From Ruminococcus albus 7 = DSM 20455 (GTDB lineage Bacteria; Bacillota; Clostridia; Oscillospirales; Ruminococcaceae): DNA of 32,000 nucleotides. This document shows, one piece after another, positions 19,902 to 20,696 of the stretch. Below the pieces are notes generated by a model. That model was not told the DNA's origin, did not search any database, and saw only the letters and a program-made list of their open reading frames with translations. Location: positions 930,001 to 962,000 of the forward strand of contig NC_014833.1 in the NCBI RefSeq assembly GCF_000179635.2, written 5' to 3'. A program made the translations under genes and the position numbers. The stretch's first letter is position 1, and each line of letters starts with the position of its first letter.

Positions 19902-20696
19902 TTATTCTTCGTCTTCACTGCCTTTATTTCTTGCGATACCGATAGCTGCAAGCAGGACCGCTGTGCCTAACGACACACCGCCTGCAACACCTGTTGCGGG
20001 GTTAGCATTGCTAGCATTTGGCTTGGGGCTGTATGCTGAAACAGTTTCAGCCTTTTTTGAACTGCTTTCGGATCTGCCTGCATAGGTCGCGCCCGTTGCT
20101 TTGGAGAATTCCAGTGCCTTGGACTGTTCGCCTGTACCGCTAGCGAACTCTGCAACTGTGCCGCCTACCGAAACGTTGGTATTACCTGACTTTATGGTAT
20201 AATTCGCGGTGGAATCGCCTATCTTTGCGTTGAAGGTATCTCCGCTTTCAGTATTGCTTGCGCTGTCAATGGTGACAACTATCTTCGCGTTCTGGGCTAG
20301 TCTGACATCTGTGGCAGTTATCTGTCTGGTAGTTTCTGCAGTGTCGGAAAGCGACACACTTGCGGGGATAACTACCGAGTATGTGGGTGATACATCATAG
20401 GATACTTCCATACCTGCGGTTGAAGGTTTGGGGGTTGGCATATTTTCGGGATCGGGAACTATCTCGATATCCCAGTTCGCTCTTAAAACAAGATGCAGGG
20501 TGCTTTCTTTCTGGATATTGTAATCGGCAAGAGTTCTGTCATCTTCAAGCTGTTTGCCTGCAAATATCAGTCTCTGTTTGTTGGGTGCAATACTCTCTTT
20601 ATCCTGTATTTTTGCCTTTACGTTTTCAATAGTATCGCTGGGTTCAACCTCAAGAGTGATAGTCTTGCCTGTCAGAGTCTTGACGAATATCTGCAT
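19902..20696 (-). CDS. Eukaryote-type ubiquitin domain fused to a surface-protein-like module with a C-terminal NPATG sorting-signal-like anchor
   Basis: 264 aa. Residues 1-72, [72 protein letters not shown], differ from canonical ubiquitin at 6 positions. LRGG is replaced by ANWD. The C-terminus is NPATG + [19 protein letters not shown] + RNKGSEDEE. Confidence 0.85.

Follow-up and report, generated by a model that had tools for sequence, protein, structure and literature searches.

Eukaryotic-type ubiquitin in bacteria is known from BfUbb of Bacteroides fragilis and its homologues, in which a signal peptide precedes a free 76-residue ubiquitin homologue, 63% identical to the human protein; BfUbb is an inter-strain toxin that is imported through a SusCD transporter and targets a periplasmic peptidyl-prolyl isomerase (PMC3352274, PMC5705921, PMC11467351). 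Here we consider a bacterial ubiquitin of a different kind, found in a 32,000-nucleotide stretch of the Ruminococcus albus 7 chromosome (the window; NC_014833.1, positions 930,001 to 962,000). An open reading frame (ORF) of 264 codons with an ATG start, on the minus strand at 19902..20696, encodes near-canonical ubiquitin followed by a beta-type module and a wall-anchor tail. As with BfUbb, the ubiquitin is of eukaryotic type and lacks the C-terminal di-glycine, and in the intact Ruminococcus relatives it carries an export signal. However, the Ruminococcus ubiquitin is far more identical to the human protein and forms the N-terminal domain of a larger Gram-positive surface protein encoded within an operon, whilst the window ORF has no signal peptide and, with 264 residues and two further parts, is not a stand-alone domain of ~76 residues. 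Our literature search returned only the Bacteroides work and general papers on fibres, and none on signal peptide-ubiquitin surface proteins. We consider it probable that the window ORF descends, by deletion and decay, from the fifth gene of an operon for a surface fibre, an operon present in Ruminococcus albus and related Oscillospirales.

Ubiquitin also stands in frame at the N-terminus of another protein in the eukaryotic fusions Ub-L40 and Ub-S27a and in polyubiquitin. These are cleaved in the cytosol by deubiquitinases (DUBs) after Gly76, however, whereas the window ORF has no Gly75-Gly76 and the intact proteins related to it are predicted to be extracellular. At its other end the ORF resembles the sortase substrates of the NCBIfam family NF033846 ('Rumino_NPXTG'), with NPATG at residues 232-236 (19989-20003), a stretch of 19 hydrophobic residues (19932-19988) and the charged end RNKGSEDEE (19905-19931). 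Its score of 20.0 bits lies slightly below the cut-off of 23.5 (the donor gene of this tail, P0010, scores 19.4), and it differs from these proteins in lacking the signal peptide that such substrates need.

The ubiquitin domain occupies residues 1-72 (20481..20696, minus strand) and matches Pfam PF00240 with 107.3 bits against a cut-off of 25.4, which marks it as true ubiquitin and not as a generic beta-grasp fold. Aligned by phmmer, 66/72 residues (92%) are identical to human ubiquitin, the six substitutions being G35S, P37A, D39N, Q40K, G53D and S57A; all seven lysines and the L8/I44/H68/V70 patch are intact. The C-terminal LRLRGG motif is required for ubiquitin activation and conjugation. 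It is absent from the window ORF, where residues 71-76 read LRANWD, so that ANWD (residues 73-76, 20469..20480) replaces LRGG. A Pro-rich linker and a truncated Ig-like module follow (residues 77-207, 20076..20468), and then the tail (residues 209-264, 19905..20072), in which a Ser-rich stalk precedes the sorting signal. No Shine-Dalgarno sequence is present in the 25 nucleotides before the ATG (TCGTAAAAAACTGACCGCAAACGCA), and no in-frame start lies between the ATG and a TGA 11 codons upstream. The neighbour upstream on the same strand is a gene for a GH130 phosphorylase (20842..22002, minus strand); between it and the ATG no sigma-70-like promoter was found on the strand of the ORF, nor any terminator-like site, so transcription by read-through from GH130 is possible. 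An intrinsic-terminator-like hairpin with a T run lies 18 nucleotides past the stop codon (19860..19884, minus strand). The original prediction, made from the DNA letters and a list of ORFs, had reported the near-canonical ubiquitin with these six substitutions, the intact lysines and recognition patch, the lost LRGG, a downstream part of Gram-positive surface-protein type, the sortase-type tail, the missing leader and Shine-Dalgarno sequence and the absence of E1/E2/E3 or DUB genes nearby, and on all these points it was right: the surface-protein type is borne out by the operon relatives described below, and no E1/E2/E3, DUB or sortase domain was detected among the ORFs of at least 100 residues in the 32-kb window. 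The product is identical to R. albus 7 ADU21378.1 / WP_013497556.1 / UniProt E6UIS6, which RefSeq labels 'ubiquitin-like protein'; public databases thus already contain the sequence, and our literature search found no paper on WP_013497556.1.

A search with window residues 74-264 collected relatives of two kinds. Those of the first group, 236-252 residues long, consist of a signal peptide, ubiquitin, a Pro-rich linker and the beta module, and have no anchor. P0001/2/3/5/9 and P0136 (R. albus SY3) read MK.KRLLAAGMALTM..TANA/MQIFVKT...ATYAGKHTETLTFGIKVE, an example being MKTKRLLAAGMALTMITSVCTLTANA/MQIFVKT...ATYAGKHTETLTFGIKVE. In every intact relative the ubiquitin stands directly behind a Sec signal peptide (TANA/MQIF). 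It had been proposed that ubiquitin replaced the leader of a surface protein, but the leader and the ubiquitin occur together in the intact relatives, and the final five codons of the leader (L T A N A) survive in the window at 20697..20711 (minus strand), where no start codon can translate them. The second group, of 187-188 residues, resembles the window ORF only in its last ~50 residues, where identity reaches 100%, and carries NPATG. The R. albus members of the family have ubiquitins 83-92% identical to human.

Both groups are encoded in one operon, in which the ubiquitin gene is the fifth of 7-8 genes. The operon opens with a 183-residue membrane protein and one to three large, variable secreted proteins; these are followed by a small secreted protein of 183/190 residues, the ubiquitin protein, a 168-residue small secreted protein and the 187-residue NPXTG protein, with a DUF6431 gene beyond them on the opposite strand. 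The intact operon was found at loci L002-L006, L096 and L097 (cultured R. albus SY3), SY3 having two intact copies of the ubiquitin gene, RASY3_03075 and RASY3_18340, and the operon's plan is kept in distant genera, for example in L013, a Faecousia metagenome-assembled genome (MAG), where the last protein has SPQTG. The sequence AAAGGAG precedes the ATG of the intact genes; the window gene has none. A ~93-nucleotide element with the core TGTCATCCAAAAGTGAACGTATC stands upstream of every intact ubiquitin-fibre operon, ~370 nucleotides before the first gene, and a partial, inverted copy of 30-41 nucleotides is found on the far side of the DUF6431 gene in two distinct chromosomal settings (element and partial copy at 3629-3721 and 11418-11447 in L002, 4350-4441 and 11710-11739 in L096, and 3918-4009 and 11715-11753 in L097). 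The inverted partial copies indicate that the operon and the DUF6431 gene together may form a mobile cassette. In L002 a terminator hairpin follows the element. Rfam gave no match in the window or in the element.

Comparison of DNA sequences places each part of the window gene within this operon. Window positions 20712-20075 correspond at 94% to the ubiquitin gene of L007, starting inside leader codon 21; positions 20080-19895 correspond at 97% to the 3′ end of the anchor gene of L002 (the tail to L002 10383-10566); and positions 20803-20711 correspond at 80% to the ~93-nucleotide element, which here (20712..20803, minus strand) is joined directly to the leader remnant. At the 5′ junction (20707-20712, minus strand) the hexamer ACTGAC is common to the element and the leader. 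The 3′ junction (20075..20080, minus strand) reads GCAGGCA/GATCCG, and there homology to the P0001-type ubiquitin gene gives way to homology to the P0010-type anchor gene. The wall-anchor tail is consequently not a native part of the ubiquitin gene, as had been assumed, and comes from the last gene of the operon. Neither junction lies at 20470-20500, the boundary of ubiquitin and linker that had been singled out for checking, since the intact relatives are continuous there. A GTG AAA GCG upstream of the ORF was examined as the start of a frameshifted 'MKA' leader and rejected, as the alignment puts this stretch in the conserved upstream element.

Two microhomology-mediated deletions in the R. 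albus 7 lineage account for this arrangement. In the intact protein, near-canonical ubiquitin lies between the signal-peptide cleavage site and the module; it would therefore be exported by Sec and displayed at the cell surface. The first deletion removed genes 1-4, the promoter-like site of the operon, the Shine-Dalgarno site and leader codons 1-21. The second removed the last strand of the module, the 168-residue gene and most of the anchor gene, joining the remainder in frame. Members of the module family are marked by a P-[TAS]-Y-T-V-T-I-P strand near the start, which in the window ORF is PTYSVVIP (residues 104-111), and by a Y-A-G-x-[YH]-T-x-T-L-T-F strand at the end, which is cut after YAG by the deletion, so that the last beta strand of the intact relatives, KHTETLTFGIKVE, is missing. 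The remaining ORF starts at ubiquitin's own Met, with an incomplete module and no export signal, which would make its sortase signal unusable. Most likely it has no functional product and drifts as a pseudogene, although it may still be transcribed by read-through from GH130.

The same leaderless fusion is present at the same locus in the complete genome of R. albus 7 and in at least seven other assemblies. These loci were retrieved through an exactly identical GH130 neighbour and a cluster table, an exact look-up of the 264-residue sequence in the contig index having given no match. Flanked by GH130 and by a WG-repeat lipoprotein gene, the fusion recurs at a DNA identity of 96.7-99.5% in several metagenome assemblies and in three NCBI genomes besides that of R. 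albus 7. Among the six alleles with an open frame, the ratio of nonsynonymous to synonymous polymorphism (pN/pS) was 0.92 for the module, 0.91 for the tail and 0.39 for the ubiquitin part; the intact operon copies gave dN/dS values of 0.11-0.19 at a synonymous divergence (pS) of 0.24-0.46. A frameshift common to L091 and L094 (2/8 alleles) cuts the ORF to 171 residues. The gene is not listed in an RNA-seq paper on R. albus 7 or its supplement (PMC4300822). Since the leader, the ribosome-binding site and a structural strand have been lost, and given near-neutral change in the module and tail, the frameshifted alleles and the lack of a promoter-like site, we think it likely that the window gene is a non-functional relic.

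Several observations weigh against this conclusion. The ORF is open in 6/8 alleles, both junctions are in frame and a terminator-like hairpin follows the stop codon. The lower pN/pS of the ubiquitin part could be due to constraint that still persists or to gene conversion by intact paralogues; the patches GVAPDAQ and YPDNIPPLKPS are common to some of the relic alleles and intact P0001/P0140, which suggests gene conversion and could explain the lower ratio. Furthermore, the selection test has little power, as the alleles differ by only 1-3%, and the GH130 baseline is biased because the loci were retrieved by exact GH130 identity.

These same features, the open frame kept at one locus across strains, the in-frame junctions, the terminator and the pN/pS of 0.39, are what would be expected of a live new gene, translated from ubiquitin's Met and held in the membrane by its C-terminal hydrophobic stretch with the ubiquitin-like domain in the cytoplasm. 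Such a tail-anchored protein was one of two products envisaged in the original prediction. We regard it as rather unlikely: the gene has no Shine-Dalgarno or promoter-like site, its module lacks the last strand and, like its tail, changes at a pN/pS of ~0.9, frameshifted alleles exist, and the window contains no partner from a ubiquitin system. The other product envisaged, a non-conjugatable ubiquitin decoy that leaves the cell without a leader by non-classical export and is then linked to the wall by sortase via NPATG, is distinctly improbable. The tail does match the Ruminococcus NPXTG anchor model at 20.0 bits and the intact relatives are clearly built for export. However, sortase substrates require Sec export; in the window the leader is deleted and no upstream start with a leader, which would have removed the conflict between an anchor and a missing export signal, is available. 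The tail, moreover, was gained by deletion and not selected together with the gene, and selection is relaxed. Neither product is favoured by alleles that are near neutral and in two cases frameshifted.

A recent, direct capture, in which a rumen eukaryote supplied a ubiquitin unit that took the place of the leader, would fit a domain 92% identical to eukaryotic ubiquitin. It is already contradicted, and we give it very little credence, as five leader codons survive upstream of the Met, leader-bearing ubiquitin-module fusions occur in many genera at 40-92% identity and a pS of 0.24-0.46, the GC content of the ORF equals that of its surroundings, and the copies of rumen and gut bacteria have D16, N53 and A57 in common. 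An assembly chimera, for which the original prediction had advised a check, or eukaryotic contamination, neither recommended by anything but the unusual content, is refuted by the identical protein in the finished R. albus 7 chromosome (a record of 3,685,408 bp) and by the recurrence of both junctions in three other NCBI genomes and several metagenome assemblies, the same fusion standing at the same locus in at least eight assemblies. The ultimate origin of the window's ubiquitin domain is presumably eukaryotic. In a donor search with the consensus of the rumen-type ubiquitin, partial polyubiquitin fragments dominated the matches, and no donor can be named, because a 76-residue domain holds too little signal.

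The module that follows ubiquitin is common to the operon proteins of 884, 281, 190, 243 and 168 residues, at the C-terminus of the large protein. A profile search returned at least 1916 members, all unnamed and without a Pfam domain, mostly from Ruminococcus and its relatives. An AlphaFold2 model built from an alignment of 116 sequences is a confident beta sandwich (predicted local distance difference test (pLDDT) 93.9, predicted template modelling score (pTM) 0.80), and a model of the full ubiquitin protein (pLDDT 85.6) has two independent domains. Searched against the PDB with Foldseek, the module found chaperone-usher pilus subunits (FimA, CfaB, PapA, the CsuE pilin domain, SafA) in all of its top 43 matches, mostly with probabilities of 0.9-1.0, E-values of 1e-3 to 0.1 and TM-scores of ~0.5. 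The Pfam families SCPU, Fimbrial_CS1 and Invasin_D3 gave marginal matches, at E-values of 1e-3 (0.001-0.006 for SCPU/Fimbrial_CS1), for a minority of module members, and a profile search of PDB sequences with the module gave no relative. The module is thus predicted to be pilin-like in fold. We do not assign it to the chaperone-usher family, since a chaperone, an usher and an outer membrane are all lacking; none of the seven operon proteins contains a chaperone or usher domain.

The resemblance to chaperone-usher pili extends to the operon, with its several paralogous small subunits, and to the arrangement of the ubiquitin protein, in which an N-terminal 'cargo' domain precedes a pilin-type domain as in the two-domain tip adhesins FimH and PapG. 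Sequence similarity is marginal, however, periplasmic chaperone, usher and outer membrane are missing, and the base would be formed by a sortase-anchored protein. The closest functional analogy to the module may be found in TasA (PMC9674648), archaeal threads (PMC9715654) and cannulae (10.1101/2024.12.30.630787), which consist of secreted subunits of Ig-like or jelly-roll type and polymerise with no usher, in the case of TasA in a Gram-positive organism (PMC9674648). We detected no homology to these, and for the Ruminococcus module donor-strand exchange is hypothetical. A conserved x-V-x-F/Y-x-V segment N-terminal to the module is suggestive only, and a point against such an exchange is that the AlphaFold2 monomer model shows no swapped N-terminal segment; assembly of the module by donor-strand exchange is for that reason put forward as a hypothesis. 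Given several paralogous small subunits, large variable proteins with the module at their C-terminus and a last gene for a sortase-anchored product, the most economical reading is that the intact operon builds a wall-anchored surface fibre or complex.

To see how far the combination of a signal peptide and ubiquitin extends, prokaryotic genomes were scanned, one per species, with an intact family member as query. The scan gave at least 600 pattern matches and at least 506 confirmed ubiquitin relatives, so the view taken in the original prediction that bacterial ubiquitin is rare has to be given up. We examined 84 ubiquitin ORFs, comprising the best 80 loci and a few earlier ones, and a hydrophobic leader ended directly at the Met1 of ubiquitin in 70 of them. 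Amongst these 70, 59 have Ala at position -1 of the leader, and 59 have Ala or Val at position -3. Over 72 residues the ORFs examined share a median of 67 (range 55-71) with human ubiquitin, and L8, I44, H68 and the lysines are kept in 90-100%, whilst Gly75-Gly76 is kept in only 13/70. The third-position GC (GC3) of the domain ranges from 0.20 to 0.92 and correlates with the GC of the locus (r = 0.82). Hosts with complete chromosomes include Limnohabitans sp. DCL3 and Paenibacillus sp. FA6, and cultured hosts include R. albus 8, Dyella spp., Paracidovorax valerianellae and Cohnella sp.; these are therefore resident bacterial genes. Four loci (L056, L058, L067 and L082), all on short contigs, carry polyubiquitin or Ub-S27a of the usual eukaryotic kind and are apparently contamination.

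Downstream of the ubiquitin, Pfam and NCBIfam identify autotransporter barrels, dockerin, GLUG repeats, SdrD_B/Cna_B repeats, Flg_new repeats, SLH repeats with cadherin-like and fn3 domains, and IPTL-CTERM with choice-of-anchor U; in R. albus 8 an X25 domain and beta-helix repeats follow. As judged from these annotations, the common theme is a ubiquitin predicted to lie at the distal N-terminus of surface-anchored proteins. D16, N53 and A57 are common to rumen and gut lineages of different phyla (Clostridia, Fibrobacter, Synergistaceae), which hints at spread among bacteria rather than repeated capture. Taken together, these features suggest that ubiquitin has long resided in bacteria, strongly constrained by something that is not conjugation. 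One possibility, which we advance tentatively, is that signal peptide plus near-canonical ubiquitin is an old, widely exchanged bacterial module, preserved with hardly any change by selection for binding the ubiquitin-binding proteins of a eukaryote (a grazing protist or host) or another conserved receptor. By the same conjecture, to be held as loosely, ubiquitin would sit at the outer tip of Ruminococcus fibres, autotransporters and cellulosomal dockerin, S-layer-anchored and IPTL-CTERM proteins, and the R. albus 7 gene would be the fossil of such a system.

Some members of the collection have unusual arrangements. Adjacent, tandem signal-peptide-ubiquitin genes with mutually diverged domains occur in L028 (7033-8171), L059 (2692-5555) and L009 (10001-11784), and one ubiquitin copy of L009 has insertions in the first and third loops. 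Dyella spp. (L066, L047, L071, L075) encode a stand-alone signal peptide and ubiquitin in ORFs of 113-148 residues, with 69-71/72 identities to human; one of them ends in LRLRGG, and the architecture is that of BfUbb with a sequence far nearer to the eukaryotic one. Two loci in Methanobacteriota MAGs, L031 (9647-10441) and L034, carry near-canonical ubiquitin (69-70/72) in the middle of the protein, with a domain GC3 of 0.17-0.21, and the N-terminus of these archaeal proteins (…VSPVIATILMVAITVVLSGVIYVWA…) resembles an archaeal type IV pilin-type signal.

The surroundings of the window gene are rich in repeats and insertion sequences (IS), a setting that the original prediction had pointed out. 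The possibility that IS elements or the flanking repeats delivered the gene was dropped: only some strains have the adjoining IS1595 copy, and the order GH130, ubiquitin gene, WG-repeat gene is the same with and without it. Next to the WG-repeat lipoprotein gene, an IS1595-family transposase gene and an IS605 OrfB-like fragment lie at 16158-17033 and 17192-18103. L089 has the IS1595 copy, but L088 and L091 lack it and continue with a cellulase and an AraC gene, so this insertion is strain-specific. The inverted repeats said to bracket the segment do exist, though their arms (13377-13535 and 26659-26817) are 159 nucleotides long rather than 168 bp and 91% complementary, each with a GC-rich hairpin followed by T/A runs (CCCCCGAGCCCTCTTTTTTGAAGAGGGCTTGGGG). 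From their sequence they look like a repeated intergenic terminator element and not IS ends. Further R. albus assemblies (L090, L093) also contain one of the arms.

Further from the gene, an IS21-like element (2384-8661) is bounded by outer 78-nucleotide inverted repeats (2384-2461 and 8584-8661) and contains IstB (2750-3517) and a split transposase, with the Mu-transposase C-terminal domain at 3514-4419 and rve at 7883-8515. It is apparently interrupted by three tandem tyrosine-recombinase genes (4560-7766) between 36-nucleotide inverted repeats (4426-4461 and 7833-7868), a layout that resembles a 'recombinase in trio' element. Two proteins of ~594 residues, encoded at 23037-24818 and 27422-29206, have a 30-nucleotide direct repeat in common (23568-23597 and 28134-28163). 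In the first, ECF-type sigma-70 regions 2 and 4 precede ~380 residues without a domain match; the second has no Pfam match.

In conclusion, the window gene is itself probably dead and of little matter to the cell; it is valuable because it points to what is apparently an undescribed and widespread class of near-canonical ubiquitin on bacterial surfaces. If this is confirmed, the binding partner of an extracellular bacterial ubiquitin would become a testable question, as would its use by gut, rumen and freshwater bacteria against protists or hosts, and the existence in Gram-positive bacteria of pilin-like fibres built without chaperone-usher machinery.

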